Source of the DNA: an uncultured Verrucomicrobiae bacterium
GTDB lineage: Bacteria > Verrucomicrobiota > Verrucomicrobiia > Chthoniobacterales > JAFAMB01
NCBI GenBank assembly: GCA_963762565.1
Contig: CAVXLD010000005.1
Location: forward strand, 224,001-288,000
Direction of reading: 5' to 3'
Length of the DNA stretch: 64,000 nt
The position numbers were made by a program, and so were the translations under genes. The stretch's first letter is position 1. Every line of letters starts with the position of its first letter. Shown here piece by piece: positions 1 to 60,624 of the stretch. Below the pieces are notes generated by a model that ran no database searches, was not told the origin of the DNA, and saw only the letters and a program-made list of their open reading frames with translations.

Positions 1-4
1 GGGC

Positions 5-910
5 ATGCTTCCCGTGCTCATTCTCATTTGTATTTTGTTTGCAGTTCTCACCCCAAATTTTCTGACGGAGAACAATATTATCAACGTCGTGCGCCAGGCT
101 TCGATCAACATCGTGTTAGCCGCAGGAATGACGTTTGTGATTCTCACCGGTGGAATCGATCTATCCGTCGGCTCTGTGCTCGGGCTTACCGCGGTGATTG
201 CGGTCGTGGTTTCCTTGGTTCCACAACTCAGCTGGGCGGCTGTTCCGGCGGCTTTGTTGGCCGGATTAGTGATCGGCGTATTAACCGGGGCAATCGTCGC
301 CTACATGGGATTGCCGCCCTTTATCGTTACACTTGGGACCTACACCGCCATCCGGGGCGCCGCCTACCTGGCCGCGGGAGGCACCACGGTTATTAATAGT
401 AACATTGACTTTGCTTGGATCGGGAATGGTTACTTTGGGCCGATTCCCTGGTTAGTCATCCTTGCGCTTATCACCATCGCAGTCAGCGCGTTTATCCTGC
501 AGGGCACAGTTTTGGGGGTGCATGTGTATGCGGTGGGTGGCAACCCGCAAGCTGCCCGGCTGACGGGCATCCCAGTCTCGTCCGTATTAATCTTTGTGTA
601 CGGCGTCAGCGGGCTACTTTCCGGCCTGGGTGGAGCGATGAGCGCGAGTCGTCTATATAGCGCTCAAGGTCAGCTAGGTATCGGCTATGAGTTGGATGCG
701 ATCGCGGCAGTGATATTAGGTGGTACCAGTTTCTCGGGCGGGATTGGGAATGTTTTCGGGACTTTGGTTGGTGCACTAATTATTGCTGTGCTCAATAATG
801 GCCTAACTCTGCTGAACGTCTCGTTCTATTGGCAACTGGTCATAAAAGGAGCGGTTATCGTCCTGGCGGTTGCACTCGATAAACTGCGGACCCGCGGCCA
901 GGCCGCGTAA
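5..910 (+). CDS. Monosaccharide (ribose/xylose-type) ABC transporter permease, probably 5'-truncated by the window edge
   Basis: RbsC-family motifs GMTFVILTGGIDLSVGS, YAVGGNPQAARLTGI and YELDAIAAVILGGTSFSGG. Confidence 0.9.
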   Translation: MLPVLILICILFAVLTPNFLTENNIINVVRQASINIVLAAGMTFVILTGGIDLSVGSVLGLTAVIAVVVSLVPQLSWAAVPAALLAGLVIGVLTGAIVAYMGLPPFIVTLGTYTAIRGAAYLAAGGTTVINSNIDFAWIGNGYFGPIPWLVILALITIAVSAFILQGTVLGVHVYAVGGNPQAARLTGIPVSSVLIFVYGVSGLLSGLGGAMSASRLYSAQGQLGIGYELDAIAAVILGGTSFSGGIGNVFGTLVGALIIAVLNNGLTLLNVSFYWQLVIKGAVIVLAVALDKLRTRGQAA

Positions 911-1082
911 GGGATGAAGGTTTAACACTTTAACTCGGAGCATTTATGCCAGCACTTTTCGTTTCGTGGATTGCAATGACTGTCCTGATGACAGCCGCGC
1001 TTGTTCACGCCCTGAGAAGGGACTAGTGATCCGCAGAGATTTTTGCAAAGCGGTTTCGACCAGCCGCGAAGCGGCTATAGAC

Positions 1083-1295
1083 GGGGAGGGCGCGCTGCCT
1101 GTCCGCCATAGCTTTAGCGACGGAGGATCCCCGCGCGCCGCGAGGACATGCCACGACCCCAGGCGTATTTTCGTGTACGACCGTGAGAGTCCCCAGCTCC
1201 GTTAACAACGGATCGCGAGGATCCGACGTCGCCAACATCTCGAAGAAAAGAGCCTGAAGGCAGAAGGCTATGTCGGACAGGCAGCGATCCCTCCC
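1083..1295. repeat. REPIN-like doublet (family A); both arms carry a nested hairpin insert
   Basis: Left arm gggagggcgcgc..tccccgcgcgccg, ~70 bp semi-conserved spacer, right arm cggatcgcgagga..gcgatccctccc; homologous copies at 2930, 3889, 5662, 32827, 54779 and 60493. Confidence 0.85.
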
Positions 1296-1452
1296 GGGCG
1301 TTGGGCGGCACGCAATCCCAGGAAGAAGCGCCTCCCGAGTGGCGCTCGACGTCGGTACGATCATTCGAACGGCCAGCATTTCGAGCGATTAGGCTTCGCA
1401 ACCGAGAATCTATAACCTGCACATATTCAGCAAGTTATGATTATGAAGCCAG

Positions 1453-1469
1453 TTGGCACAGAAAGTGAT
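1453..1469 (+). promoter_or_regulatory. Sigma54-like -24/-12 motif TTGGCACAGAAAGTGAT
   Basis: TGGCAC -24 box with GA instead of GC at -12; near-identical copy on the minus strand at 2530-2546; IHF-like attcagcaagtta just upstream. Confidence 0.5.
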
Positions 1470-1513
1470 CCAAGGTTTCAGAAACAGAAGATTCATTGAG
1501 GAGGAGCCTCATT

Positions 1514-1639
1514 ATGATAATCCGTTCAACCATCAAAAACATTTACTATCCAAGACCAGAAAAAGGCGGACGCATTGTCCACCGAAGCGGAAGAATTCGT
1601 TACGTTCACGGTGCGCTCGTGGTGCAGTCGAAGGGCTGA
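1514..1639 (+). CDS. Small basic hypothetical protein, 41 aa (MIIRSTIKNIYYPRPEKGGRIVHRSGRIRYVHGALVVQSKG)
   Basis: GAGGAGGAG Shine-Dalgarno 7 nt before the ATG; downstream of a sigma54-like motif; below the ORF-track cutoff. Confidence 0.5.
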   Translation: MIIRSTIKNIYYPRPEKGGRIVHRSGRIRYVHGALVVQSKG

Positions 1640-1646
1640 TCGGCTC

Positions 1647-1840
1647 TTCGTTCTTGTCCTTCCGCCTTCGCCGACGCCCTGGTTGTGGAGCGCGCCTCGC
1701 TTGCGAGGCCGACATTGGGCGGTCGGCAACGTAGAGCGTGGGCTACGGCGGACGAGCTGTCCTCGAATCCAGGCGAGCAGAGTGACTGAGTATTGGAGTA
1801 CTGCGCTAGTTGGAATTACCCCCGCGGTCGCGGGGTTGGG
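1647..1840. repeat. Composite ~200 bp repeat containing a GTGG-type REP (gtggagcgcgcctcgcttgcgaggcc)
   Basis: Colinear homolog at ~54360-54570; the REP core also occurs at 2875, 23672, 23828 (inverted) and 54924. Confidence 0.85.
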
Positions 1841-1972
1841 TTGCTGAATGGGCACACCGACGGGTGCTCAGTCTAATCGCTTCCCTCGTCGCCCTTGCAG
1901 ACTCGTTGTTGTGGAGCGCACCTTCCCGCGGCCGCTGGATGAGGCCGATCTTGGCCAGATCTTAACGCGGTG

Positions 1973-2072
1973 CTCCAATGCTCCATTACTCCATTACTCC
2001 ATTACTCCATTACTCCACTACTCCACTACTCCACTACTCCACTACTCCACTACTCCACTACTCCACTACTCC
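1973..2072. repeat. Tandem octamer array: CTCCAATG x1, CTCCATTA x4, CTCCACTA x7, plus a partial unit
   Basis: Read directly from the sequence; complementary to gagtattggagta at ~1788-1800. Confidence 0.95.
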
Positions 2073-2198
2073 GCTCGGCTGGCTATCTAGTGCGGCTCGC
2101 AGAACGTATCCTACCCGGCAAGTGCCAGGCAGAAAAGAAAGGCCGACATGCAGAGGAGTAGAATAAAGGTCTCCATTGTTAGGCGCTAAATGGCTGGT

Positions 2199-2510
2199 CT
2201 AACAGCTTGCATCTAAACCGTAGCCGCGTGCGACCCACTCGCAGAATCGTTTGGCTTCACCGACGGTCTTGGCAGAGCTGAGTACGGCATAACAATCTCC
2301 GGCAAAAGAAAACATCGCCGAAAACATGCCGCCGACTCCGGAGTTAATCTCGAATTTTGCCGGTCCGATTCTGCCGACGAAATACTGAGCCTGCTCGTGA
2401 TTTTCCCAGCTTATCCGTCGACCAGGCCTCAGGTTTAAGCCTTCGGTGCGGCCGTGTGAATCCTCGGGTCCCAGTTCGGCGACAGGATGGGCTTTTGGTT
2501 CGTCTTTCAT
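2199..2510 (-). CDS. Hypothetical protein (103 aa)
   Basis: Protein-like composition, lies in non-repeat DNA, sigma54-like motif ~20 nt upstream. Confidence 0.55.
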   Translation of the reverse strand: MKDEPKAHPVAELGPEDSHGRTEGLNLRPGRRISWENHEQAQYFVGRIGPAKFEINSGVGGMFSAMFSFAGDCYAVLSSAKTVGEAKRFCEWVARGYGLDASC

Positions 2511-2529
2511 TGCTTTCAGTCACAGTGAC

Positions 2530-2546
2530 ATCATTTTCTGTGCCAA
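2530..2546 (-). promoter_or_regulatory. Sigma54-like motif TTGGCACAGAAAATGAT
   Basis: 16/17 identical to the motif at 1453-1469; oriented toward ORF 2199..2510. Confidence 0.5.
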
Positions 2547-2929
2547 AGTCGTGGACATCTACAACACTCTCATAGTGTTGTCCTTATAAGGTTTGAGCCG
2601 ATAGGTTACTCAGAACGAAAAACGGGAAGTTCTGAGAATCGTCTCTCGGTTCCACGCTCGGGCTTCGTGTTCGTCCTCGATTCGGCTCCTGGGGGACCGA
2701 CATGTGCAAGACGTCAGACGGGGCCGGGGAGCCGCGGCGGTCCTGGAACTGGGACGGCTGATGCCGATTTTGTAACGGTTTGGTAGCCGTCGATCCTGGC
2801 ACAGTAACGTCAACACCTGTGATCACCTCGTGTGGATCCCCGGGGCGCGATCTTTCAGTTTACGTTGCCGATTTGTGTAGCGCGCCTCGCTTGCGAGACC
2901 GACTTCGAGCGTTCGGCAACGTAGAGCGT

Positions 2930-3052
2930 GGGGAGGGCGCGCGTCCCCGCGCGCCGCGAGGACCTGCCACCAGCTGGCGGCGTATTTTCGTCTCCGATCA
3001 AAACACGTCCTCGGTTTCAATCAAAACGGATCGCGAGGACGCGATCCCTCCC
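2930..3052. repeat. REPIN-like doublet (family A) without nested inserts
   Basis: gggagggcgcgcgtccccgcgcgccg ... cggatcgcgaggacgcgatccctccc. Confidence 0.9.
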
Positions 3053-3107
3053 GGCGATGGACCCGAAAAGCATCCGCCTTGGCGGCTTGTAGATGCTGAA
3101 GGAATAG

Positions 3108-3142
3108 TTGAAAAGCAAGGCTGATGCGATAGCATCTGATGC
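3108..3142 (+). promoter_or_regulatory. Putative leaderless sigma70 promoter and operator of the TA operon
   Basis: TTGAAA-N16-TAGCAT ending 7 nt before the ATG; overlapping GATGC/GCATC inverted repeats, as expected for antitoxin autorepression. Confidence 0.5.
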
Positions 3143-3388
3143 ATGCGCACTACGCTAGACGTCGATGATGACGTGCTACAGGCCGCCAAGGAACTCGCGC
3201 GGCGACACAAGAAGACTGCCGGGAAAATGCTGTCTGAGTTGGCTCGGAGAGGTCTAACCCTCCCGCAAGTCGGTTCGACAATCTCGACGGAGCCAGCCTT
3301 TCTCGGTTTTGAGCCGTTTCCCCGTCGCGGAGGTGTCGTCACAAACGAACTGATCAACCAGATCCGCGCCGCGGAGGCAGGGGAGTGA
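3143..3388 (+). CDS. vapB: VapB-type antitoxin (ribbon-helix-helix/CopG-like)
   Basis: MRTTLDVDDDVLQAAKELA N-terminus and VVTNELINQIR C-terminus; overlaps the PIN toxin start (GTGA). Confidence 0.85.
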   Translation: MRTTLDVDDDVLQAAKELARRHKKTAGKMLSELARRGLTLPQVGSTISTEPAFLGFEPFPRRGGVVTNELINQIRAAEAGE

Positions 3389-3816
3389 GACGTGCCCTGC
3401 TCGACATCAATATTCTGATAGCGTTACTCGATCTTGATCATTCCCATCACCAGGAAGCCAGAAAGTGGCTTGAACGAGAAGCCAAATACGGTTGGGCGTC
3501 CTGCCCAATTACGCAAAACGGCTGTATCCGGGTGATGTCTCAGCCGAGCTATTTGAACCCGTTGCCGGCCAGATCTGTAATTGCTCGATTAGCAGTCGCA
3601 ACTCGCTCGAACTATCATGAGTTCTGGCCCGACGACATCAGCATTCTGAACGAGTCTTTGGTCCGAGCCGAACGGCTGCACGGACCGAAACAACTGACCG
3701 ATATTTATCTGTTGGCTCTAGCGGCGCATCATGATGGGCGGTTCATCACCTTTGATGGAACTGTGCCGGCATCGGCTGTGGTGAACGCCCGGAAGAATCA
3801 TCTGGTTGTTATTTAG
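3385..3816 (+). CDS. vapC: VapC PIN-domain toxin
   Basis: LLDINILIAL, QLTDIYLLALA and FITFD motifs of PIN ribonucleases. Confidence 0.9.
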   Translation: MRRALLDINILIALLDLDHSHHQEARKWLEREAKYGWASCPITQNGCIRVMSQPSYLNPLPARSVIARLAVATRSNYHEFWPDDISILNESLVRAERLHGPKQLTDIYLLALAAHHDGRFITFDGTVPASAVVNARKNHLVVI

Positions 3817-3888
3817 GCGGGCGTGTGGAGCGTGGCGTCCCGCGGCCGCGCCTGCGCGTCAACATAAGCGTTCGAGGAGCCCCTGACA

Positions 3889-4072
3889 GGGAGGGCGCGC
3901 GTCCCCGCGCGCCGTGATGGTGTTCTCGAAGCCAACGGTGTATTTTCCGTCCTTGATTAGGCTAGGCTGTGGGCTTCGGGAACGACGGATCGCGAGGATC
4001 CGACGTCGCCAACATCTCGAAGAAAAGAGCCTGAAGGCAGAAGGCTATGTCGGACAGGCAGCGATCCCTCCC
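3889..4072. repeat. REPIN-like doublet (family A); right arm carries a 60-nt insert identical to 1222-1281
   Basis: Direct sequence comparison. Confidence 0.9.
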
Positions 4073-4121
4073 AGCGCTGGGTCGGCAGCCGCCACCTGCT
4101 CAAGAGCCGAGTGGAATTGGA

Positions 4122-5690
4122 ATGATTCAATTTTCTGCAAAAACAGCGCGGATGGCATTCGCTGCTTTGCTTCTGTTTGCCAATGCAGATTGGGTTACCG
4201 ATTCGGCGGCATCGCCGGCCTCACTGTCAGTATTCGTCAAAAAAGCAGACGACGCCTACCGAAATCTTCCAGGCTCGATTGCGACTTACAATCTTGCCAT
4301 GCGAGAACTTTGCCTGGAGATGGAGGTCGAAAGTCCCCGGCAATTCGCCTCGAATTTAAGGAGGTTGGGGGTAGAGTTCGATTCGCCAAAGGTCGCGCTT
4401 CCGCTGAGGCGTATTCAGGTTGCCGCCTTTTCACCCGGATCGGATTGGAAACAGATCGGTGTTCCGTTAGTAGTTGGTTATGAAACGAAAGACGCGCCGC
4501 TTTATCCACCGGAGGGTCTTTTCGTGGACGGTACCGCAATCTATGAGCGGGCAAGGGGACACGCGAAATTTTTGATAGTCTCCCACAAGAACGATGTCCT
4601 GCTCAACGGGCGTTCTTATTCACTTGCTGCAAATCACAATGCGGCCGGCGATCACTTAAAGCTCAGGGCAAAACGTCTCGCGGCCTCGGGGTTTGCGGGC
4701 ATGATCCGTCCGCTCTCAGCGTCGCGGAAGCCGCAGATTTATCTCCTGGATCCGTATGATCCGAACAAAATACCACTGTTGATGGTGCACGGTTTGCAAT
4801 CGACGCCGGTGGGATTCGCCGCGCTCGTGAATGCGCTTCGCGATGATCCGGAAGTTCGGGCCAAATATCAGATCTGGCAGTTCTATTACGCGAGTGGCAC
4901 CCCTGTTTTGCTTAACGCTTTGGAGCTTCGAGACAGTCTGAAGGAGACGCTCCAGCGGCTTGATCCAAAAGATCGCGATGCTGCCACGAAGCGGATCGTG
5001 GTGCTTGGGCATAGTATGGGTGGCGTTATTTCACACACGCTGGTGAGTTCTAGCGACGATCGAGTTTGGGGAAGTGTCTTCCGAGTTCCTCCGGATCACC
5101 TGAAAGGCGATCGCGAAACAATTCATGAATTGGCGCGCATTCTCTTTTTCCGCCGGAACCCGCGTGTCGTACGGGTGATTTTCATGGCGGCGCCGAATCG
5201 CGGCAGCCCGATAGCCGATTCGTTGGCGGGGTTAATCGGCAACTCTCTTACCCGCGAGGCTCCGATGCTTGAACACGGATTCAGCCAGTTGGCCCGTTTG
5301 AATCCGCAAGCGATGACTCCGGAGGCAGCGGTTTACTATCGGGGCCGATTTTCCGCAGTGCGAACGCTTTCGCCGCGAAGCCCGGCGCTAATAGCGGTTT
5401 CCAAGCTGCCAATAGAAGTTCCTTACCACAGCGTGATCGGACAGCATTATTCAGGTCCGAAGGACCGAGGATCGGATGGGGTAGTGCCATACTGGAGCAG
5501 CCACCTGGACGGATCCCAATCTGAGCTGATCGTGCGGAGTGGACACGGAGGCATCATCTCCAACCGCGACGCACTGGGTGAGACCATTCGGATTCTGCAT
5601 GTCGAAGATCGTCTCAGGAGACTGCCCATCCTGCGGCCCGATTCACCGAAGCACGAAGGGTGGGGAGGGCGCGCTGCCTGTCCGACATAG
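4122..5690 (+). CDS. Probably secreted alpha/beta hydrolase (esterase/lipase)
   Basis: VHGLQS, GHSMGG nucleophile elbow, DGVVPYWSSHL; start moved from 4047, which lies inside a repeat; C-terminus reads into a repeat. Confidence 0.8.
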   Translation: MIQFSAKTARMAFAALLLFANADWVTDSAASPASLSVFVKKADDAYRNLPGSIATYNLAMRELCLEMEVESPRQFASNLRRLGVEFDSPKVALPLRRIQVAAFSPGSDWKQIGVPLVVGYETKDAPLYPPEGLFVDGTAIYERARGHAKFLIVSHKNDVLLNGRSYSLAANHNAAGDHLKLRAKRLAASGFAGMIRPLSASRKPQIYLLDPYDPNKIPLLMVHGLQSTPVGFAALVNALRDDPEVRAKYQIWQFYYASGTPVLLNALELRDSLKETLQRLDPKDRDAATKRIVVLGHSMGGVISHTLVSSSDDRVWGSVFRVPPDHLKGDRETIHELARILFFRRNPRVVRVIFMAAPNRGSPIADSLAGLIGNSLTREAPMLEHGFSQLARLNPQAMTPEAAVYYRGRFSAVRTLSPRSPALIAVSKLPIEVPYHSVIGQHYSGPKDRGSDGVVPYWSSHLDGSQSELIVRSGHGGIISNRDALGETIRILHVEDRLRRLPILRPDSPKHEGWGGRAACPT

Positions 5691-5875
5691 CCTGAGGCAA
5701 CCAATCGATTTTTCTCCCAGCGGGGCGACGTCGGATCCCCGCGCGCCGTTAGGAGGACGTGCCATGACCCAAGGCCATATTTTTGTCCGCGATTACAACC
5801 CGTCCGCGGCTTCGTTGACGAAGCGGATCGCGAGGACGCGATCCCTCCCGGGCGCGCGGGGACGCGCGCCTCCCC
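5662..5875. repeat. REPIN-like element (family A) with a 59-nt nested insert in the left arm and a third arm
   Basis: Arms at ~5662-5748, 5824-5849 and 5850-5875. Confidence 0.85.
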
Positions 5876-5906
5876 AATTTGCACCTGCGCGAGAGTTTCC
5901 TACCCG

Positions 5907-6767
5907 CTAACCTTTCGCGGATGGGCCACCAAGCTGCCCGACATAGTATCCCAGTCGAGTTTCCACATCGCCGGCCCGGTGGAAGCCGAGCTTCATCAAA
6001 GCCTCAAGTCTAGTTTTGGCGGCTGGGCGCCCAACCGAGGCAACAAAGGCATCCCATTCGGGCACGATTTCCGCGTCTTTTGGCAGGCTGGCAACATCGA
6101 CCAGCCGTTTTGTTTCGGCGAGGGCTTGTTTGTCGAAGGAAGAGATTCGCACCGCAAGCGCTTCCACAAAAGAATCGAGCTCTGCGTCCGGGAAAGCACG
6201 ATTCACATAGCCGTAACGCTCGGCGAGATCTCCTGGAATATCGTCTGCTCCCAGCAGCACTTCTAACGCACGTCCACGACCGATTAGACGAGGCAAGCGC
6301 GCCATGGGGCCGCCCCCTGGAACCAAGCCGGCGCCGACCTCCCATTGCGATAAGATGGCTTTTTCCCGACTGGCAAAACGCATATCACATGCGAGCGAAA
6401 GCTCGCTTCCAACGCCGGTAGCCCGTCCCCGAATCGAGGCAATGGACACGACATGGGCGCGGCTCAGGCGCGCAAACATGTCGGGAAGCGGCTGCAGACC
6501 TGTCGGGCCGGGAGACATGCCTGGGTCGTCTTCCGGCTTAGCTAGGAAATCCCAGTGGGTTATAAAGAAGCCTTCAACCGCGCTGTCAAAGACCACCACC
6601 TTTAGCTGCTCATCAGTTTCGATTTTGGAAATAATCTTGTTCAACGGGGAAAGGTTTTTCGGGCCGAAGATGCCCACTGGCGGAAGGTCAAAAGTAACCC
6701 GCCAATAAAATGGCGAACGTTGTTCCAGACGGATCTGTCCGCCGTCCGCGATAGGTGTTTCGTTCAT
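5907..6767 (-). CDS. Enoyl-CoA hydratase/isomerase family protein
   Basis: IASIRGRATGVGSELSLACDMRFAS and EVGAGLVPGGG crotonase motifs. Confidence 0.9.
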   Translation of the reverse strand: MNETPIADGGQIRLEQRSPFYWRVTFDLPPVGIFGPKNLSPLNKIISKIETDEQLKVVVFDSAVEGFFITHWDFLAKPEDDPGMSPGPTGLQPLPDMFARLSRAHVVSIASIRGRATGVGSELSLACDMRFASREKAILSQWEVGAGLVPGGGPMARLPRLIGRGRALEVLLGADDIPGDLAERYGYVNRAFPDAELDSFVEALAVRISSFDKQALAETKRLVDVASLPKDAEIVPEWDAFVASVGRPAAKTRLEALMKLGFHRAGDVETRLGYYVGQLGGPSAKG

Positions 6768-23854: not shown

Positions 23855-24081
23855 AAAACTCAACGCCGACAACTATCCGAAACGAAGAGGCGATCTATTA
23901 GACCAAGGTATCGTTCAGTCCGAAAAATCGTACCTCGATTTACCGGGACAAACATTTCGTAAGACCCTCATAATCAGGGAGAAACGCCTCGAACGCCAGG
24001 TTGGTACACAACTTGTTATTGTCTCTCTTGCTGTCCCCAGGAGCTAACCGCGAATCGACCGAATGAAAGCCGACAAAAACC

Positions 24082-24176
24082 AACCGCAGATTAACGCAGA
24101 TGCACGCAGATTGAAGGCCGTTGCGTGTTCGCAGCCGCTGACCGGAATCTGCGTAAATCTGCGTCCATCTGCGGTT
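24082..24176. repeat. Hairpin with acgcagat-type repeat arms (family D, short form)
   Basis: aaccgcagattaacgcagatgcacgcagat ... atctgcgtaaatctgcgtccatctgcggtt. Confidence 0.9.
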
Positions 24177-24267
24177 AGGCTTTCAGTTTCTTGTCCATTT
24201 GCGTTGGCTCCTCGATCCTCAATTGAACGAGCCGGAGCTTATCCCCACAACACCGAGGTGCGCGATT

Positions 24268-24927: not shown

Positions 24928-24961
24928 GCGTGGCTAGGCCGAAGGCAAACAGAAAAAAGCC

Positions 24962-25290
24962 AACCGCAGATGGACGCAGATTTACGCAGATAAGAAAGGG
25001 CGGACGGGCAATACAAAAGAGCGAAACATTTCGCTAGGCCGAACAACGCCGTGCAGAGGGGATCATCCGCAGATTACACAGATTTCGTTCTGAGGTGAGT
25101 TTAGCACCGCGAGGTAAAGGAGAACTGTAGGTATGAAAGATTTATTGATCTAGCTGGTCGTATCAAAGCTCCAAACGTAATCTGCGTAATCTGCGGATCG
25201 TTTCTGTTTTTGCCGGCGTTGCCTGATCCGGCGCTTGTTCCGCTATTTTGTTGCCCGTCCGCCCGTCCCCAGCTGCGTAAATCTGCGGTT
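24962..25290. repeat. Nested palindrome (family D, long form), copy A
   Basis: Outer and inner cgcagat/atctgcg arrays; homologous to 28966-29336. Confidence 0.85.
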
Positions 25291-25332
25291 AGAGTTTTTT
25301 TTGCGTTCTTTTGCCGCTATTTGTTCCGAATC

Positions 25333-28965: not shown

Positions 28966-29336
28966 AACCGCAGCCCCGAAATCCTCCGGGGCGAAATGGA
29001 CGCAGATTAACGCAGATCATCAAATCGCCAGTCTATACGATAGAGCGAAACACGCGCAGGATGGGACAATGCCAGCAAAAACAGGAACGATCCGCAGATT
29101 AACGCAGATTACGCAGATTACGCTTGGCGGCGGCTCAAGAAGACGAGGTAAAGGAAAACGTGTCGCCTACGAAAGTTTTGTTTCTCTCCCCGGCCGTATC
29201 AACGCTCAAAACGAAATCTGCGTAATCTGCGTAATCTGCGGATGATCCCCTCTGCAGGGCGTTGCTCGGCCTAATGAGATGCTTCGCTCTACTGTGTTGC
29301 CCGTCGGCACTTTCTCATCTGCGTTCATCAGCGGTT
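28966..29336. repeat. Nested palindrome (family D, long form), copy B
   Basis: Flanks are the reverse complement of copy A flanks, while the core is colinear with copy A. Confidence 0.85.
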
Positions 29337-29394
29337 CGGTTCCTATGGCACCCCTCAAAAAAATGTTGCTGTTAACCAACATATTCAGCTTTCC

Positions 29395-32826: not shown

Positions 32827-32930
32827 GGGAGGGCGCGCTGCCTGTCGGCCATAGCTTTAGCGACGGAGGATCCCCGCGCGCCGCGAGGATGTGCTACTAC
32901 CCAATCGCGTATTTTCGTCCCGATCGCGAC
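32827..32930. repeat. Family A left arm with a 30-nt insert plus partial spacer
   Basis: Near-identical to 1083-1175. Confidence 0.85.
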
Positions 32931-48356: not shown

Positions 48357-51300
48357 TTAGGTTGGGGGATCGGTCTTGGCTGGCTTGCTCTCATCACGAA
48401 TCGGCAGCGTAAATTGAAAAACGGCGCCTCGGGATGAATCGGCGGTGGCCGATAGCCGTCCCCCGTGAGCTTCGACAATTGAACGGCTGATTGCCAGACC
48501 CATGCCAAGGCCTTGAGGCTTAGTCGTGTAGAAGGCGTCGAAAAGGCGGTCAAGATTGTTCGGATCTAGCCCTGGGCCTGAATCTCTGACCGCTATCAGT
48601 ACGTGGGTCCATTCAGCACCCGCCAGGGCCTTGTCGCCAAACCTGTCTTCCCCTCGGGTCTCGTTTATTTTCTGCGAACTGACCAACAGCTCTCGCGGAC
48701 CGTCGCCTGCTGCACTCATGGCTTCGAATGCGTTGAGCATCAGATTGAGAATCACTTGTTCCAATTGGATTCGGTCTCCCATAATGAGTGGCAAATCACT
48801 GGTAAACTGAGTTTGCAGTGTTACCCGATTCCGCTTCACTTCGCTCTGTGCGAGAATCACAGCTTCTTCAATGACTCCGTTTATATCCAATCGTTCCTTA
48901 GCCGTACTAGCCTTCTTAAAGAGAGATCGCATCCGTGAGATGACCTCGCCGGCCCGCTTTCCGTCGCGAGTAATGCGGCGGATCGCTTCACGGGCTTCGA
49001 CCAGGTCCGGTGAATCTCCAGACAACCAGCGCAAGCTGGCGTCGGCATTCGTTACGACTGCGGCCAGCGGCTGGCTGATTTCATGCGCGATTGAGGCGGT
49101 CAGTTCTCCCATCGTAGTTAGCCGACTAACATGAGCCAGGTTGGATTGCGCTTCGCGCAAGGAGACCTCCTTCTGACGCAGCTCTTTCTCCGCCCTTTTA
49201 CGCTCGGTGATGTCGATGCCCAACCCCATGATTTCAACGAGATCGCCGGATTCACTGAAAACGGGATGGCCTACTCCGTAAAGGTGCTTGATCTCGCCGT
49301 CCGGAAGAACGACTCGGAACTCGAGGTCGGAATCTCGCCCTGCACGAATTACGTCTTCGGTGTTTTCAAGCCACTTTCTCCGATCCTCGGGATGAATTCG
49401 CTGGAGAATCGCCTCAAATGGCGGGATACCTGCATTCGGATCAAATCCAAACAGGCGGTAGCGTTCCTGCGACCAGTGGGTGACCTCTTTCGTTGCGGGA
49501 TTCAAGGCCCAACTGCCGCTTTTACTCAGCGCCTCCGCTTCCGTTAAGTAGGCCTCGCTACGCCGCACGGCGGCTTCTGCGCGGAGCCGCTCGCTGATCT
49601 CACGCTCGAGCCTTGCGTTGGCGCGGCTTAGCTCTGAGTACAATCGGGCATGGTCCAACGAGATCGCAGCCTGAGAGGCCAACAGCTCCAGCATGGCTAC
49701 CCGCTTTGGAGTAAACACCCTGGGCGCTAGATTGTTCTCCAAATAAAGAACGCTTATCAGCTTCGATTGTTTGAGCAGCGGCAGGCAAAGAACCGATTTG
49801 GGATGTCTCTGCCGGAGGTACTCATCCTCTGAAAACAGGGTATGGGTGGACGCATCATCCAGAATGACCTTCTCTTGGCTTCGAATCACATAGCGCAAGA
49901 GCGACTCGGGCAGCTCAGATGAGGACACTGGTGTCTGTCGCAGCCGAACATCCACTTGGCAAGCGCCCGGCCCGATTTCGGCCTCAATCCGATACTGCTC
50001 ACCATCCGGCAGAACCAGAAGACCGCGCTCAGCGCCCGCGTGCTCAATAGCTGTGCGCATCAGTGTGTCGATTAGTTTCTCCAGGACGATCTCGCTCGAC
50101 ACTGTTTGCGAGACTTTGATAACGGTAGCCAGGTCCAGATGTTCGACCGATGCACCGATCGTGCTGGTGGGAGCGGGAACTGGCTCTTCCTCCCTGAGAT
50201 GCGGATATAGTTCGTCGAGTTGCTGCACCTTCCCATCGGCTCCCCAGCGGAGGTAGCCGTACCGAGCGTCATGGAAATACGCGTTTGCTATCCTTTCGAA
50301 ACCGCGCGCGACGTAAAAGCGAGCGGCGAGCTCGTTAGCGATGGCCTCATTGTGGACAAAGCCGTTGTCGCGGGCCGAGCGGATGGCCTGTTCGTATAGC
50401 TGCTCGGCGTCGAGCACGCGGCCTTCGAGGCGAGCGATCTCAGCGCTCACCAGCGCCGCGCGGTTTGCAAAATTCTCCGGGCAATTCTCCGCCCAGGTTT
50501 CGAGCTGCTGCTGATGTTCAGCCAGGACCTTTAAATGCTCCTCCTTCGCCAAGGCTATGGAGGACAAGTCGCCTTTGCTATCCGCCGTTTCGGAATCGGA
50601 TAGGGCAGCCCGAGCTAGGGCGCTATAGAAGTGATACTCCGCCGATTCGAAAAACGATAGTGATGTCCAAAGCAACCGTTGCCCCTTCAGTGAAGCATCG
50701 ACAGCCGAAGCATAGTCCCCGGCAAAGAAGCGAGCTTGCAGCTTCCGGATCCAATACCAACACTCCGGCAGTGCTAATGCAGGGTGACTTGCCAAGTGGC
50801 GCTCGAATTGACACTCCTCAAACTCACCCTCGTCAAAGGAACCGAATCTCGACGTCAGCCCGCGAAGGGTCCGGATAAGTCCGAGCTGAGCAGTAATGAC
50901 GTCACTGACCCGACCGAACCGAGCCTTCTGGGCAAACTCGAGAGCATGCTCAGCTTGGCGCTGCGCCTCAACCAGTGGATCGCCCGCTGCCAGCAAGTTT
51001 GTATTTAGGTTGTCGCCGCTGTACGCTGCAAATGTTAGATCGCCGACTTTGTTTGCGGCCTCAAACGCCCGACGGATCAGGTCTCGGCAGGCACTGACAT
51101 GTTTCGTCCATGGTACGACAAATTGGGCGAACCAGTGATAGGTACGAGCCTGGAATCGCTCCAACCCACGTTTCTCGACCAGTTCATAGCCGAGCTGACC
51201 GAATCGAAATCCCGCTTTATAGTCGCCAAAATGCGGTCCGGCTATCTTGCCGAAGAACACATACGCGACGCACGAGCCGTCGCCATGGCCTCGTTCCAGG

Positions 51301-54068
51301 CTAAGATTGACCGCCCGACAGGCCGTCATAGCGAGAAGATTCGCCTGCGTCGCATGCAAAGCAGCAGGCAAGACCCTGGTCAGCACATCCAGAGTCGCGA
51401 GGGATACTGGGTCGCTCATCAAGGGTAGATCAACAAGCTCCTCGATCGTACGGCTCCCAACGCTTATCCAGATCCGCTCGTATTCGCGTCGCGCTTCCTC
51501 TTCTGTCAGATGAGGCGACCAGTCGACGCCGAGATGCCGGAGGTAGTCGAGACAGGCGCCAACCGCGCGATCGGTCTGGTCAAGAGTCGTGTACAAATCG
51601 ATACGTAAGCACTCGACATTCGCTCGCTCCATAGCATTTGCCGCGTGGGATGAAAGCATCGTCAAGCGCTCTTCTGCAGCGGCCAGTTCACCAGTCAGGA
51701 ACTCGCATTCGGCTCGGTACAATTCCAAGGCGAAGGTGAGCTCACGGCGGCGCGCCCAAGAGTCGCTCGCTAACAGCGCTGTGCCGACGATGAGATATTT
51801 GAGCGCCGAGGCGTAAGCCGTAGAGGCCCTGGCGCGCTTGCCTGCCAAAAGGTTGAACTCGGCCAGCTGCTCACGTTCGTCTCGTGAGCTAATCAACAGG
51901 ACCCCGCGGTTGAGTTGATTAACGATCTCGAACACGGCCTCTTCAAGCCTCTCTGGGGGAGTGCGCGCCGTCAGCAGCCGCCCCATTCGCAGATGGGCCT
52001 CGGCGCGTAATTCTTGCGGGATCAGTGAATAGGCAGCTTCCTGGATGCGGTCGTGGACAAACTTATAGGAGCCATTCAGACGCACAACGAACTCCAGACG
52101 CAGAGCCTCCCACAAATCCGACTGAACTTCCTCTTCCGATGTCCCGTGAACGATGGAAAGCGTGGTGAGCTCGGCAATGTTTCCAAGACAGGCAAACTCC
52201 TTCAGTGTCTTCTGGGTTTCGACCGGCAGGCGGTTCAACTTCCCAACCATGAGGTCGACGACATTGTCGGTGTAGCCTTTCGCGTGAATCTGCATGAGGT
52301 CCCAAGACCATCGCCCCGAGCCATGGTCAAAGGTGAGCAGCCCCTCTTCGGCCAGCGCAGAAGTAAACTGGATCGCGAAAAACGGGTTGCCGCCCGTCTT
52401 TTCGTGCACTAGCAGCGCCAGCGGCGCTACGCGCTCCGGTGGGCAGTGGAGCGAATCGGCCATCAAGCCTTCGAGGTCTTCCTTGGTGAGCGGCGCCAGC
52501 GTGATCTTCTGTACGAGCGCGCCCGCTCCGTGGGTCGTTTCCAGCTTGCGCAGCAGCGGATGGGTGGCGTCGACCTCGTTGTCTCGGTATGCGCCGATCA
52601 ACAGCAAGTACTGCACATCCGGCTGGATCAGCAGATCCTCGATCAGATCGAGGGTGGCTGCATCGAGCCATTGCAGATCGTCGAGGAACAGCGCCAACGG
52701 ATGTTGCCGCCTTGCGAATACGCCAATGAAGCGCCGGAGCAATAGCTGGAAGCGGCGTTGTGCTTCCTGTGGTGGAAGTTCTGGGAGTGGAGGCTGCTCG
52801 CCGAGAATGAGCGCCAGTTCGGGGACCAGGTCCACCATGAGCCGTCCGTTCGGGCCCATCGCCTCCCTAAGGGCGTCGCGCCAATGGCTCAGCTCGGCGT
52901 CGCTCTTACTCAGAAGGGGACGGATTAGGCCCTGAAAGGCCTGAGCTAAAGTGGCATAGGGAATGTCACGCTTATACTGGTCGAACTTGCCCGACGCAAA
53001 GAGGCCGCGGGGCAGAACCAACACTTTTTGGAGCTCATTGACGACAGATGACTTGCCGATGCCAGAGTATCCCGAGACAAGCACCAACTCCGGCACGCCG
53101 CCGGCCACGATGCGGTCGAAGGCAGCAAGCAAGGTATCGATCTCGCGCCTTCGTCCGTACAATTTCTCGGGGATCAATAGCCGGTCGGGAGTGTCGTGCT
53201 CGCCCAGCGCGAATTCCTGAATTTGGTGGGGCGAGGCTCCTGCCGAGCCGTGCTCCCAATCTACGAGGCAACGTCGAAGATCACTCTCGACACCGGTCGC
53301 CGTCTGGTACCGTTCTTCCGCAGTCTTGGCCAGCAGTTTCATGATGATTGCAGAGACCGGGGCCGGGATCGCCTCAAACCGCTCGCTCGGCGGCACCGGC
53401 TTTCTCGCGATGTGGCAATGTACCCACTCCATCGGATCGGAAGCCATGAAGGGAAGACTTCCGGTCACCATTTCATAAAGCGTGACGCCGAGGGCATAAA
53501 GATCGCTCCGGCAGTCGACGCTGCGATTCATACGTCCAGTCTGCTCCGGCGCCATGTAAGCGAGCGTCCCCGCGAGAAACTCCGGAGGTTCGGCCGGCTG
53601 GCGCTCGCGTGGAAGCCTCGAAGCGATGCCAAACCCCCTTAGCCAACACTGGCCGGTTACGGGGTTCACGAGAACATTGGCCGGTTTGATGTCCTTGTGA
53701 ATAATGCCGCGCTCGTGCAAGTGGTCGATCGCGGCTGAAAGGCTCACAGCCATTCGCAAGAAAAGCACCAGGTCTAATGGACGCCCGAGCAATTCATCTA
53801 GAGGCACACCGCCTGGATCCTCCAACTCGAGGACCGTGCGGTCCGAGTGGCGCGCCACTGCGATCGGTCGGGCCGACCATGCGGGATCCAGCACTTCTTT
53901 AAGAGAGCATTCGTGCTCCAGCCGCTTCAGACTTTCAGGCGTGGGATGCTCCGCGACAGGCGAAAGTACAAGGATCCGAGACGCATCGCCCTGATTCCGC
54001 CCGCGATAAAGGATAAACTCTTCGTCCTTTCGCAGCGCCTCGAGGGAATATCTTGATAGCTCAATCAC
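48357..54068 (-). CDS. Trifunctional Ser/Thr kinase + AAA ATPase + GAF + PAS + histidine kinase
   Basis: HKDIKPAN, YMAPEQTGRMN, GYSGIGKS, DDLQW, GAF (LYLENN), PAS, AHEISQPL, DSGPG, GMGLAIS; start placed at GTG (VIELSRY), uncertain. Confidence 0.92.
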   Translation of the reverse strand: MIELSRYSLEALRKDEEFILYRGRNQGDASRILVLSPVAEHPTPESLKRLEHECSLKEVLDPAWSARPIAVARHSDRTVLELEDPGGVPLDELLGRPLDLVLFLRMAVSLSAAIDHLHERGIIHKDIKPANVLVNPVTGQCWLRGFGIASRLPRERQPAEPPEFLAGTLAYMAPEQTGRMNRSVDCRSDLYALGVTLYEMVTGSLPFMASDPMEWVHCHIARKPVPPSERFEAIPAPVSAIIMKLLAKTAEERYQTATGVESDLRRCLVDWEHGSAGASPHQIQEFALGEHDTPDRLLIPEKLYGRRREIDTLLAAFDRIVAGGVPELVLVSGYSGIGKSSVVNELQKVLVLPRGLFASGKFDQYKRDIPYATLAQAFQGLIRPLLSKSDAELSHWRDALREAMGPNGRLMVDLVPELALILGEQPPLPELPPQEAQRRFQLLLRRFIGVFARRQHPLALFLDDLQWLDAATLDLIEDLLIQPDVQYLLLIGAYRDNEVDATHPLLRKLETTHGAGALVQKITLAPLTKEDLEGLMADSLHCPPERVAPLALLVHEKTGGNPFFAIQFTSALAEEGLLTFDHGSGRWSWDLMQIHAKGYTDNVVDLMVGKLNRLPVETQKTLKEFACLGNIAELTTLSIVHGTSEEEVQSDLWEALRLEFVVRLNGSYKFVHDRIQEAAYSLIPQELRAEAHLRMGRLLTARTPPERLEEAVFEIVNQLNRGVLLISSRDEREQLAEFNLLAGKRARASTAYASALKYLIVGTALLASDSWARRRELTFALELYRAECEFLTGELAAAEERLTMLSSHAANAMERANVECLRIDLYTTLDQTDRAVGACLDYLRHLGVDWSPHLTEEEARREYERIWISVGSRTIEELVDLPLMSDPVSLATLDVLTRVLPAALHATQANLLAMTACRAVNLSLERGHGDGSCVAYVFFGKIAGPHFGDYKAGFRFGQLGYELVEKRGLERFQARTYHWFAQFVVPWTKHVSACRDLIRRAFEAANKVGDLTFAAYSGDNLNTNLLAAGDPLVEAQRQAEHALEFAQKARFGRVSDVITAQLGLIRTLRGLTSRFGSFDEGEFEECQFERHLASHPALALPECWYWIRKLQARFFAGDYASAVDASLKGQRLLWTSLSFFESAEYHFYSALARAALSDSETADSKGDLSSIALAKEEHLKVLAEHQQQLETWAENCPENFANRAALVSAEIARLEGRVLDAEQLYEQAIRSARDNGFVHNEAIANELAARFYVARGFERIANAYFHDARYGYLRWGADGKVQQLDELYPHLREEEPVPAPTSTIGASVEHLDLATVIKVSQTVSSEIVLEKLIDTLMRTAIEHAGAERGLLVLPDGEQYRIEAEIGPGACQVDVRLRQTPVSSSELPESLLRYVIRSQEKVILDDASTHTLFSEDEYLRQRHPKSVLCLPLLKQSKLISVLYLENNLAPRVFTPKRVAMLELLASQAAISLDHARLYSELSRANARLEREISERLRAEAAVRRSEAYLTEAEALSKSGSWALNPATKEVTHWSQERYRLFGFDPNAGIPPFEAILQRIHPEDRRKWLENTEDVIRAGRDSDLEFRVVLPDGEIKHLYGVGHPVFSESGDLVEIMGLGIDITERKRAEKELRQKEVSLREAQSNLAHVSRLTTMGELTASIAHEISQPLAAVVTNADASLRWLSGDSPDLVEAREAIRRITRDGKRAGEVISRMRSLFKKASTAKERLDINGVIEEAVILAQSEVKRNRVTLQTQFTSDLPLIMGDRIQLEQVILNLMLNAFEAMSAAGDGPRELLVSSQKINETRGEDRFGDKALAGAEWTHVLIAVRDSGPGLDPNNLDRLFDAFYTTKPQGLGMGLAISRSIVEAHGGRLSATADSSRGAVFQFTLPIRDESKPAKTDPPT

Positions 54069-54295
54069 ACGGGGGCCAGATGGCACAATGTACACAATTC
54101 TTCTTATGTTCAGCCAGCAAAACACAGTTTGTTGCTCCACCCGGCAAAAGAGCGGGCACGAGTTTGGGAACGGACGAGATTTCGCCCGCAAGACGAATCG
54201 CGAGGACGCCCGACAAAGGTTATGGCCGCGGAACGTCTTGTTCAGCTGCGCCAACACCTGATCAGGCTGCTTTCTGGCTTTGATTGATCAGGTTC

Positions 54296-54702
54296 CACGC
54301 CTTAATAAACAACTCATGTTACTTGCTAACGGGTTGTTGCCTGATTATCTCACAAGGTGCTTCGTTCTCGTCCTCGTCGTCGTCCTTCCGCCTTCGCCAA
54401 CGTCCCGGTTGTGGAGCGCGCCTCGCTTGCGAGGCCGACTTCCAGCGGTTGGCAACATAGACCATGGGCTTCGTCGGACAGGCTGTCCTCGAATCCGGCC
54501 ACGCGGAGTGATGGAGTGTTGGAGTACTGCGCCAAGTCCGAAAAGCACCCGCGTAGCGGGTTGGAGATGCAGCACCAAAGAAAAGGGGTCGCATCTAAAT
54601 CTTCAACACAGTCGAAAATGATGTATTTAAGGTTTAGACGTGACCCCTGTCGGGCGCCTTCTCTTTAAAGGCGCGAAGCGTTTACCCCGGAGCATTTCGG
54701 GT
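54296..54702. repeat. Cluster of nested repeats: family E shell interrupted by a ~314 bp composite
   Basis: Shell segments match 59150-59207 and, in inverted form, 59535-59582; the insert includes the homolog of 1647-1840. Confidence 0.75.
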
Positions 54703-57777: not shown

Positions 57778-57908
57778 CTTACAAACACGACCGGTGAGTC
57801 GTTCCTTCAGGCGCCGTGAAGTGTCTTACGGAGCATGCTCATTCTGGTTCCGCCACTATTGCGGAATGATCATGCTATATGTCAATCACTCGATTCCCCC
57901 TACCGACC

Positions 57909-57957
57909 CAAACGCCAAACGCCAAACGCCAAACGCCGAACGCCAAACGCCAAACGC
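57909..57957. repeat. Heptamer tandem array CAAACGC x7 (one unit CGAACGC)
   Basis: Read directly; abuts the stop codon of the hydrolase. Confidence 0.95.
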
Positions 57958-59024
57958 TATCCGCCGAGACGCTTTGAAAAAAAAGCAGCAATGAATTTGC
58001 TTGCCTCTTTCGACTCGGGTAGATCTGGATTGTGCCAGAAAGCGTGAGGCAACGCTTCAAAAACGATTAGCTGTGCGTCAACGCCTGCTCGAAGAAAGGC
58101 TCGGTGCAGAATGCTGGTCGCGCTGAGTACAACGTCGCGAGTACTGGTTATGAATAAACTCGGCGGAAATCCTCTGAGGTTAGAGTACAGCGGTGATAAG
58201 ACCGGATCTTTTGGATCGGCGGAGCCAATATAATCGGTGTCTAGATCATTCAGCCCCGCTGGGTCGATCGGCTCGGATAGACCTTTCAGATCAAAGAGGG
58301 CCTCAGAATCTCCCGCCATGCTAGCGTCGCCGCCGGCAGCAAAAATGCCGAGCGCACCGGGCAATGGCAATTTTAGCTTTCGCAGCTGAGCCGCTACTTC
58401 TGCGGTCAATGCCGCACCGGCCGAAGTGCCGTAGATGCCGACCTTTCCGGGTTGGTAAGTCTTTATCAGCTCTTTATAAACCGCGACGGCATCGTCGATC
58501 GCTGCTGGGAATTTATTGTCCGGTAACAGCCGATAGAGAACAGAGACAACCTTGATACCTGACAGGTTGGCGATCGGGACCGATTCGGACAACGAGCCGG
58601 CATCGAATCGGAAACCGCCGCCATGCAGATTGATTAAAACCTTAGAAGCATTCTCCGGAGCGATGGTAAATGGAGTTACTGCGCGTACGGGAACACCCGC
58701 AATTGTGTCGGTCTTGGTGTTGGCCGGGTAAAGGTTCAGTGCCTCAGTGCCCATTGCAGTCGCCCATTTCTCCATCGCTTCCCGACGCTGTTGGAAAGTC
58801 GCCTGAGAACCGGAAGCAACTTTGCTGTTTTTCAACTCCTCCTGCGCCGCCAGGCTGATGGTCTTTGGAACCGGAACCACACGCGTTACTGTAACCGTTC
58901 CATCGGCGGCGATGGCAACGGTAGGAGTCGCAGCCGGTTGAGCATTCTGGGAGTAGATGGGCGAGGCCGACAGCAGCAAGGCAACGAGGAGCGGAAGACG
59001 GCGGAGATGCGGGTGCATGCTCAC
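57957..59024 (-). CDS. Secreted HSL-family esterase (alpha/beta hydrolase)
   Basis: HGGG, GTSAG, D..LSP and PHAF motifs; signal peptide. Confidence 0.9.
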   Translation of the reverse strand: MSMHPHLRRLPLLVALLLSASPIYSQNAQPAATPTVAIAADGTVTVTRVVPVPKTISLAAQEELKNSKVASGSQATFQQRREAMEKWATAMGTEALNLYPANTKTDTIAGVPVRAVTPFTIAPENASKVLINLHGGGFRFDAGSLSESVPIANLSGIKVVSVLYRLLPDNKFPAAIDDAVAVYKELIKTYQPGKVGIYGTSAGAALTAEVAAQLRKLKLPLPGALGIFAAGGDASMAGDSEALFDLKGLSEPIDPAGLNDLDTDYIGSADPKDPVLSPLYSNLRGFPPSLFITSTRDVVLSATSILHRAFLRAGVDAQLIVFEALPHAFWHNPDLPESKEASKFIAAFFSKRLGG

Positions 59025-60492: not shown

Positions 60493-60624
60493 GGGAGGGC
60501 GCGCGTCCTCGCGCGCCGCGAGAACGTGCCACGACCCAAAGGCGTGATTTTCGTTTGCGGTCATAACCCATCCTCGGCTTCGGTAACAATCCGGCGGCTG
60601 CCGGACGAGGACGCGGTCCCTCCC
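60493..60624. repeat. REPIN-like doublet (family A)
   Basis: Arms and spacer are homologous to the 1083, 2930 and 5662 copies. Confidence 0.88.

Follow-up and report, generated by a model that had tools for sequence, protein, structure and literature searches.

Several REP-type hairpin arms in the genome of a soil Verrucomicrobiota bacterium (G000; 6.1 Mb, 54% G+C) are interrupted by a second hairpin of about 30 nt, which raises the question of whether this hairpin is an insertion unit in its own right and what, if anything, recognises and spreads it. The stretch of DNA analysed, referred to here as the window, comprises 64,000 nt (G000:C5:224001-288000). An earlier note on this stretch had listed five copies of the hairpin, which we call the clamp; all five were found where they had been placed, with a single shared interruption point in the REP arm, and three additional copies bring the number in the window to eight. 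The copies and the empty arms are as follows.

1083..1139, plus strand: REP-L hairpin arm GGGGAGGGCGCGC ... TCCCCGCGCGCC with a short clamp, compared with empty arms
1096-1127, plus strand: the short clamp insert in this arm, 32 nt, a TGC linker and CTGTCCGCCATAGC-TTTA-GCGACGGAGGA (hairpin 1098-1127)
1210..1295, minus strand: REP-R arm GGATCGCGAGGA ... GCGATCCCTCCC with a 34-nt-loop clamp, insert 1222-1283
1661..1755, minus strand: F70-type clamp whose ~70-nt loop contains the REP3 hairpin GGCCTCGCAAGCGAGGC; new relative to the earlier list
3999..4060, minus strand: 34-nt-loop clamp in a REP-R arm
5675..5735, plus strand: 33-nt-loop clamp in a REP-L arm, 61 nt
32839..32870, plus strand: short clamp with a TTTA loop and two stem mismatches in a REP-L arm (hairpin 32841-32870)
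50539..50568, minus strand: free-standing 30-nt clamp CTTGTCCTCCATAGCCTTGGCGAAGGAGGA with a perfect 6-bp stem; new relative to the earlier list
54387..54481, minus strand: second F70-type clamp, 70-nt loop containing REP3; new relative to the earlier list
2931..2955 (plus strand), 3889-3913 and 60493-60517: empty REP-L arms, loop G
3028-3052 and 5825-5849: empty REP-R arms

The empty arms that had been proposed were borne out at 2931, 3889 and 60493 and have the sequence GGGAGGGCGCGC-G-TCCCCGCGCGCC. Compared with the empty form (GCGCGC-G-TCCCC), a clamp insert takes the place of the one loop G and brings a TGC or AGC linker at its start. The insertion sites given previously stand, but their exact bounds do not: the true inserts are 1096-1127, 1222-1283, 3999-4060, 5675-5735 and 32839-32870. 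The two minus-strand hairpins at 1222-1281 and 3999-4058 are letter-identical, as had been claimed, and the 33-nt loop of the clamp at 5677-5735, which had been called unrelated to theirs, belongs to a separate loop cluster.

The clamp consensus reads C-YTGTCC-NN-C-RWA-GC, then the loop, then GC-GAM-G-NN-GGA, about 30 nt in all, and is built from an outer stem of 6 bp and a short inner stem, separated by a conserved 3x3 internal loop. At the variable outer-stem pairs we counted GA/TC 157 times, GC/GC 33 times, TC/GA 6 times and TT/GA 3 times; at both variable positions, pairing holds in 201 of 251 cases. When the partners were shuffled 1000 times, this count averaged 128 and never exceeded 149; the measure is inflated by related copies. 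The two sides of the internal loop are likewise coupled (ATA/GAC 118, GAA/GAA 55, GTA/GAA 47). The particular stem pair that had been quoted as evidence of covariation is absent from the five copies first listed, and its tcctcc/ggagga member occurs in the clamp at 50539-50568; the short copies at 1098-1127 and 32841-32870 have tccgcc/ggagga (one mismatch) and tcggcc/ggagga (two mismatches), respectively. Across genera the arms are kept and the loops differ. Predicted DNA folds showed no extra stability relative to shuffled sequence (z from -1.1 to +0.5), and since the arms are nevertheless conserved, the constraint looks like recognition by a protein rather than stability.

The clamp pattern is far more abundant in the genome than expected by chance. 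The exact pattern TGTCCNNCRWAGC-N2-40-GCGAMGNNGGA has 132 matches, against none with the pattern reversed, and a looser clamp motif has 197 matches against 22 in the reversed genome. When up to 2 mismatches in the arms and loops of up to 100 nt were allowed and 5 or more of the 6 outer-stem pairs were required, the census yielded 248 clamps. Their loops measure 4 nt in 35 copies, 7-23 nt in 17, 31-37 nt in 125, 68-72 nt in 65 and 87-100 nt in 4, with one copy each at 42 and 60 nt; the lengths fall into discrete classes (4, ~33 and ~70 nt) and not into the continuous distribution that the earlier note had named as speaking against a defined element.

The host contexts of these copies are REP-L arms (67), REP-R arms (52), REP3 hairpins (5), the F70 family, in which the clamp itself encloses a REP3 hairpin (76), the inside of a sibling clamp (7), the word CATTCGC (2) and other surroundings (39); the last three rows are pooled below as a class of 48. 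A scan of 716 left halves of REP arms found 432 of them empty; inserts measure 30-39 nt in 19 and 60-69 nt in 95. A single junction is common to all REP-L and REP-R copies. The flanks form a stem of at least 6 bp around 59 of the 67 REP-L copies, 46 of the 52 REP-R copies and 4 of the 5 REP3 copies (109 of 248 overall), compared with 72 of 5000 random positions. The proposal that the clamp nests in the hairpin loop of another repeat is thus upheld for REP-L, REP-R and REP3 and fails for F70 (0 of 76) and the pooled class (0 of 48); targeting of hairpin loops is not general, as 124 of the 248 copies lie outside such loops. Layered arrangements also occur: on the minus strand of contig C14, at offset 3326, an F70 clamp has a REP3 loop inside it and a 30-nt short clamp innermost, so that its loop measures 100 nt (70 + 30). 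Stop-free frames of at least 250 codons contain 39 of the 248 clamps, most of these frames probably being chance frames in GC-rich DNA. One short clamp outside the window, at C5:384914, lies in the C-terminal tail of a helicase-like frame and may be a second coding insertion beside the one described next.

The 30-nt clamp is a separate insertion unit that enters its hosts without duplication, and it has done so in hairpin loops of three REP-type families, in other repeats and in one coding gene. The earlier view of a minimal, gene-less and independently inserting unit is therefore sustained by three lines of evidence: an in-frame 30-nt insertion, filled and empty REP3 hairpins, and hosts that differ between sister species. 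The clamp at 50539-50568 is an exact 10-codon in-frame insertion in a 1966-codon ORF (48357-54257, minus strand), and its ten codons are absent both from the ortholog in the relative G001 (82% identical across 210 aa) and from 7 of 8 further homologs. In the DNA comparison the gap spans exactly 30 nt, its ends are ambiguous by 2 nt (GA), and no target duplication is seen; a length of 30 nt allows ten codons to be added without breaking the frame. A paralog of the 1966-aa protein in a relative (L307, G002:C37:29801-30427) has a different 10-residue insert at the equivalent place, so the spot seems to be insertion-tolerant.

The REP3 hairpin, GGCCTCGC-NN-GCGAGGC, occurs 435 times empty and 23 times filled. 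Two variants act as fillers, the TTGTCC form (n = 5) and a bulged-G sibling, CTGTCGCGCC-GTAG...GAAG-GCGGA (n = 18). At the filled sites the left junction varies (A, TA, AA, GAA), the right junction is constant, and the insertion point lies between two A's, without duplication. Host preference differs in related species: of 15 short clamps sampled in G002, G004 and G005, 9 are in REP3, 3 inside another clamp, 3 elsewhere and none in REP-L, whereas the short clamps of G000 include 18 in REP-L and 5 in REP3.

Sequencing data point to polymorphism at one site of the window. In a contig from run X5, position 5674 is joined to 5736 by one G, which is the empty-arm form of the 5675-5735 site, and a related strain probably has this site empty; the reading comes from one contig, which is tied to its unique flank only through an equal depth of 8.41. 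The flanking DNA of the X5 strain is ~95% identical, and the second X5 contig of this depth, which continues from 5736 into unique DNA, shows 32 differences. The 5' arm of this clamp contains a TAG (5688-5690) that is the stop codon of a 547-codon ORF (4047-5690, plus strand), so that the protein end would differ in the X5 strain, apparently devoid of the clamp. Run X1 also gave contigs with joints across clamps (for example, 3997 to 4061), but as these fall inside repeated arms they were set aside as not assignable to a locus of the window. In species-level relatives, the coding flanks of REP-hosted copies are ~75-82% identical and synteny is broken, which leaves no empty/filled comparison for these copies.

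Independent insertion accounts for a minority of the copy number, since the loop sequences indicate that most of the ~250 clamps have multiplied passively with their composite host repeats. The three large clusters of loops are each specific to one host (REP-L for 32 of 32 members, REP-R for 22 of 25 and REP-R for 15 of 15), so the reservation, voiced before, that some copies had travelled with the host arm applies to most of them. The suggestion that the clamp captures spacer-sized sequence in its loop fared less well. Many single loops are similar in length and unrelated in sequence; when the 125 mid-size loops were compared with the genome by BLAST, 108 had no other match and 17 matched four loci, at least one of which (C5:84.1 kb) resembles a degenerate clamp missed by the filter. 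A search of a phage collection with the 60-nt unit gave no match. The loops form families that diverge in place and do not look like captured foreign sequence. An autonomous parent, sought as arm pairs up to 6 kb apart and as REP halves split by long inserts, was represented only by truncated relics on C9 and C8, and alongside 7 matches to IS110-family genes in the genome no long insert with clamp ends was found.

The partner of the clamp is probably a tiny nuclease gene rather than a transposase. Of 14 loci of a GIY-YIG subfamily, drawn from Verrucomicrobiota, Bacteroidota, Cyanobacteriota and one alphaproteobacterium, 12 have a clamp-class hairpin on the strand of the gene and no more than 300 nt upstream of it, compared with 1 of 14 in the reversed control. 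Among Chthoniobacterales relatives, a strict scan found the clamp hairpin at 5 of 21 gene loci (control, 0 of 21), and inspection by eye added 6 of the 21 in which a bulged-G variant, GTCGCGCC-GTAG...CGAAG-GCGGAC, directly precedes the start codon. This variant beside the relatives' genes is the one that fills 18 REP3 hairpins in G000. The intact 83-aa GIY-YIG gene of G002 has a clamp 55-60 nt upstream, and a truncated copy of the gene in G000, at C12:58345, has one at 147 nt. An intact candidate nuclease gene was not found in the G000 assembly (93.7% complete), which has two fragments only (C12:58345-58482 and C12:36012-36125), and its clamps may therefore now be immobile relics.

Across 41 genomes, clamp and gene occur together in 10, the clamp alone in 5, the gene alone in 5 and neither in 21. 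The gene is present in 10 of 15 clamp-positive and 5 of 26 clamp-negative genomes (p = 0.006, uncorrected for kinship), and within the sole clamp-bearing family the corresponding counts are 10, 5, 3 and 7 (Fisher p = 0.11); the co-occurrence is weak once relatedness is considered.

The 83-aa protein matches PF01541 over residues 2-70 of 83 (E = 3e-13), and an NCBIfam search assigned it to no family. The nearest PDB chains are UPF0213 BH0048 (E = 6e-6) and Slx1. With a tRNA-linked alphaproteobacterial protein it shares 39% identity across 79 aa, and with an Ssn homolog flanked by NTS repeats 32% across 34 residues (E = 0.001). The reference Ssn homologs used here are NTS-flanked proteins from Proteobacteria other than Neisseria: in two Neisseria genomes examined, the only small GIY-YIG protein had no NTS nearby, and a further locus with two inverted NTS copies (L114) had no such GIY-YIG ORF. 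An intact 84-aa GIY-YIG gene of G000 (C1:180071-180283) is more Ssn-like, its product sharing 33% identity across 79 aa with an NTS-flanked Ssn homolog; the gene is located between tRNA gene copies and fragments, some of which have a GC hairpin replacing the anticodon region.

Proteins of the Ssn family cleave single-stranded DNA next to NTS/SRM hairpins (Chenal et al. 2025, PMC11893778) and bind these hairpin repeats only as single-stranded DNA; the authors liken the NTS-ssnA-NTS arrangement to an insertion sequence and to REP/RAYT systems (PMC11893778). The clamp resembles this system, exemplified by SsnA of Neisseria meningitidis, in that a single-domain GIY-YIG protein of ~80-95 aa lies beside short hairpin repeats which are fixed in orientation, dispersed in tens to hundreds of copies and mainly intergenic. 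The published SRM pattern, HGTCWYN(0-2)YYVSBRHN(0-5)WNVSBRGN(0-2)RNCYNB, was defined on 29 genomes, none of them from Verrucomicrobiota or Bacteroidota; a table of the paper lists a cd10448 homolog for Chthoniobacter flavus with an SRM enrichment of 0.96 (PMC11893778). In contrast to SRM repeats, 0 of 248 clamps fit this pattern on either strand, and the genome as a whole has 30 matches against 25 in the reversed control. The clamp-class hairpin also stands on one side of its gene, upstream, whereas NTS stands on both, and the 83-aa protein is only distantly similar to NTS-flanked Ssn homologs. Hairpin nesting, discrete loop sizes and in-frame insertion in a gene have no counterpart in the portions of PMC11893778 consulted here. 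By analogy, the clamp and the GIY-YIG gene may work like the Ssn/SRM pair, a likeness short of established membership. At an alphaproteobacterial locus (L240, G043:C1:994970-998188), regular arrays of NTS-like copies, at least 17 of them, stand on both sides of an Ssn-type gene, and the exact Neisseria NTS motif is present in at least 129 stretches from many phyla. A literature search returned no description of this hairpin, of its nesting, or of GIY-YIG genes tied to REP-type nesting.

Taken together, we consider it an even call that the clamp is a ~30-nt mobile module of a cross-phylum hairpin class beside an ~80-aa GIY-YIG gene, and that this nuclease would be the likeliest recogniser and initiator of its spread. 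Under this proposal, the class would consist of hairpins directly upstream, on the same strand, of an ~80-aa single-domain GIY-YIG gene, often behind tRNA genes; the nuclease, by analogy with Ssn, would recognise the folded hairpin and start its spread, and joining at the new site would presumably be left to host repair or replication. A nuclease alone leaves the joining at the new site unexplained, which counts against this best explanation. A fuller scheme can be held only tentatively, with doubt outweighing belief: the 30-nt hairpin would be a self-contained mobile unit that is cut by the GIY-YIG enzyme, needs no transposase and is reinserted without duplication, preferring single-stranded spots. 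Once the 80-residue nuclease had cut, the clamp would leave its site, or be copied from it, as a folded single strand of DNA; it would favour single-stranded targets, for instance the loops of other hairpins, and insertion into loops would build up the layered 'hairpin in hairpin' repeats of the gene spacers. The junctions observed are CGA^, GCA^ and GT^, followed by AG. We know of no bacterial transposable element as small as the 30-nt clamp.

The earlier note had looked to HUH/Y1 enzymes for the partner, and a REP- or REPIN-like clamp moved by a RAYT or an IS200/IS605 TnpA deserves attention, as such an enzyme would bind an imperfect hairpin formed by single-stranded DNA, cleave at the base of the hairpin and reinsert it with no target duplication, in line with the duplication-free insertion of the clamp. 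The genome has 10 Y1_Tnp matches above the Pfam cut-off, out of 12 at E <= 0.001. A GTAG-type head 5' of a palindrome is a hallmark of REPs; the RTAG of the clamp 5' arm recalls it, and the RAYT-flanking REPs of G000 also start with RTAGCC. In the clamp, RTAG or GAAG sits inside the 5' arm, within the internal loop, and not at the 5' foot. Against a Y1 partner, the five RAYT-like genes of G000 are flanked by their own, different hairpins, and behind a 352-aa Y1 gene at C1:531.7 kb stand six REP3 units in tandem rather than clamps. Only 1 of 8 Y1 loci in G000 and 1 of 23 in five relatives have a clamp at a distance of up to 1.5 kb, and no Y1 gene is bracketed by clamps; the relative G025 has 23 clamps and only partial Y1 matches (model positions 37-121 of 121), and G001 has a RAYT and no clamp. 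A Y1 partner was accordingly not substantiated and is a poor prospect. The 352-aa protein (G000:C1:531.6-533.0 kb) carries its Y1_Tnp domain N-terminally and is a candidate partner of the 435+ REP3 hairpins; the last REP3 unit behind its gene holds a nested sibling clamp. The clamp shares with REP/REPIN elements the short imperfect intergenic palindrome, high copy number, retention within a lineage, and arrays and composite (BIME-like) structures, and G000 has such systems, but the clamp is a single 30-nt hairpin rather than a REP doublet and brackets no RAYT/Y1 gene. With MITEs and IS200/IS605-derived palindromic elements it has in common the lack of a gene, inverted-repeat ends and many copies; it departs from MITEs in inserting without target-site duplication (at the coding site, with at most 2 nt of GA ambiguity, and at the REP3 site), and from IS200/IS605-derived elements in having one hairpin only and no second, distinct end hairpin. 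No parent IS or long element with clamp ends was found in the genome, and at 30 nt the clamp is, to our knowledge, shorter than any bacterial MITE. In-frame insertion in a coding gene is shared with Rickettsia palindromic elements, which are tolerated in frame in protein-coding genes (PMC10969869) and are, unlike the clamp with its 30 nt and one clear coding insertion found, ~150 bp long.

Spread without a dedicated enzyme, through host processes such as template switching at stalled forks, hairpin-loop cleavage and repair, or gene conversion between paralogous repeats, is unlikely on balance. On such an account the shared insertion point of the REP arms would be one old event that was later copied, which agrees with the one junction common to all REP-L and REP-R copies, with host-specific loop clusters, and with the finding in G000 of neither an intact partner gene nor an autonomous element with clamp ends. 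It fits poorly with arms and an internal loop that are conserved across genera while the loops drift, a pattern that points to recognition by a protein, with a 30-nt unit in unrelated contexts, including a unique coding site and the differing host repeats of sister species, and with the linkage of the hairpin class to a nuclease gene across phyla. That the hairpin acts at the RNA level, as a stem-loop that serves the nuclease gene as leader or regulator and has an internal loop (GUA/GAA) resembling loop E, its dispersed copies being by-products or RNA-level signals, is very improbable, even though it stands upstream of the gene on the same strand, sometimes ending ~10-20 nt from the start codon, and its internal loop is conserved and covarying. 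Composite host repeats hold clamps in both orientations within ~150 nt, so that any transcript would contain one antisense copy; a search of Rfam with window positions 1-6500 (E <= 1) gave two chance-level matches, neither on a clamp, and the insertion polymorphism would be left unexplained. Least tenable of all is the idea that the clamp is a mere internal part of larger composite repeats (family A, F70). Although 195 of the 248 copies are in the three host families REP-L, REP-R and F70, the 432 empty arms among the 716 left halves, the 435 empty against 23 filled REP3 hairpins and the 48 copies in other contexts speak against it, and the free-standing in-frame insertion at 50539-50568 in our view already refutes it.

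A module recognised by the GIY-YIG nuclease, if this preferred reading is correct, bears on questions beyond this genome. How NTS/SRM repeats multiply, and what role they have outside Neisseria, is left open by PMC11893778, and G000 offers clean natural evidence on repeat spread, with a related class that inserts as exactly 30 nt, without duplication, into the loops of repeats and that can lie in frame within a gene. As the SRM pattern misses the clamp class entirely, nuclease-hairpin pairs in Verrucomicrobiota and Bacteroidota are probably under-counted. Such pairs also point to new combinations of enzyme and recognition site for single-stranded DNA tools. Within G000, clamp insertion provides a concrete route to the nested palindromes that crowd its gene spacers.

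Other short repeats were observed in the window. At 1973-2076 there are about 12 tandem copies of an 8-nt word, CTCCATTA and then CTCCACTA, and tandem 7-nt repeats (CCAAACG) lie at 57908-57963. Palindromes of 7-nt words (ATCTGCG and its complement) occupy 24059-24183, 24939-25297 and 29081-29343; elsewhere in the genome, at C12:326818 and C12:335549, clamps are found between words of the ATCTGCG type.
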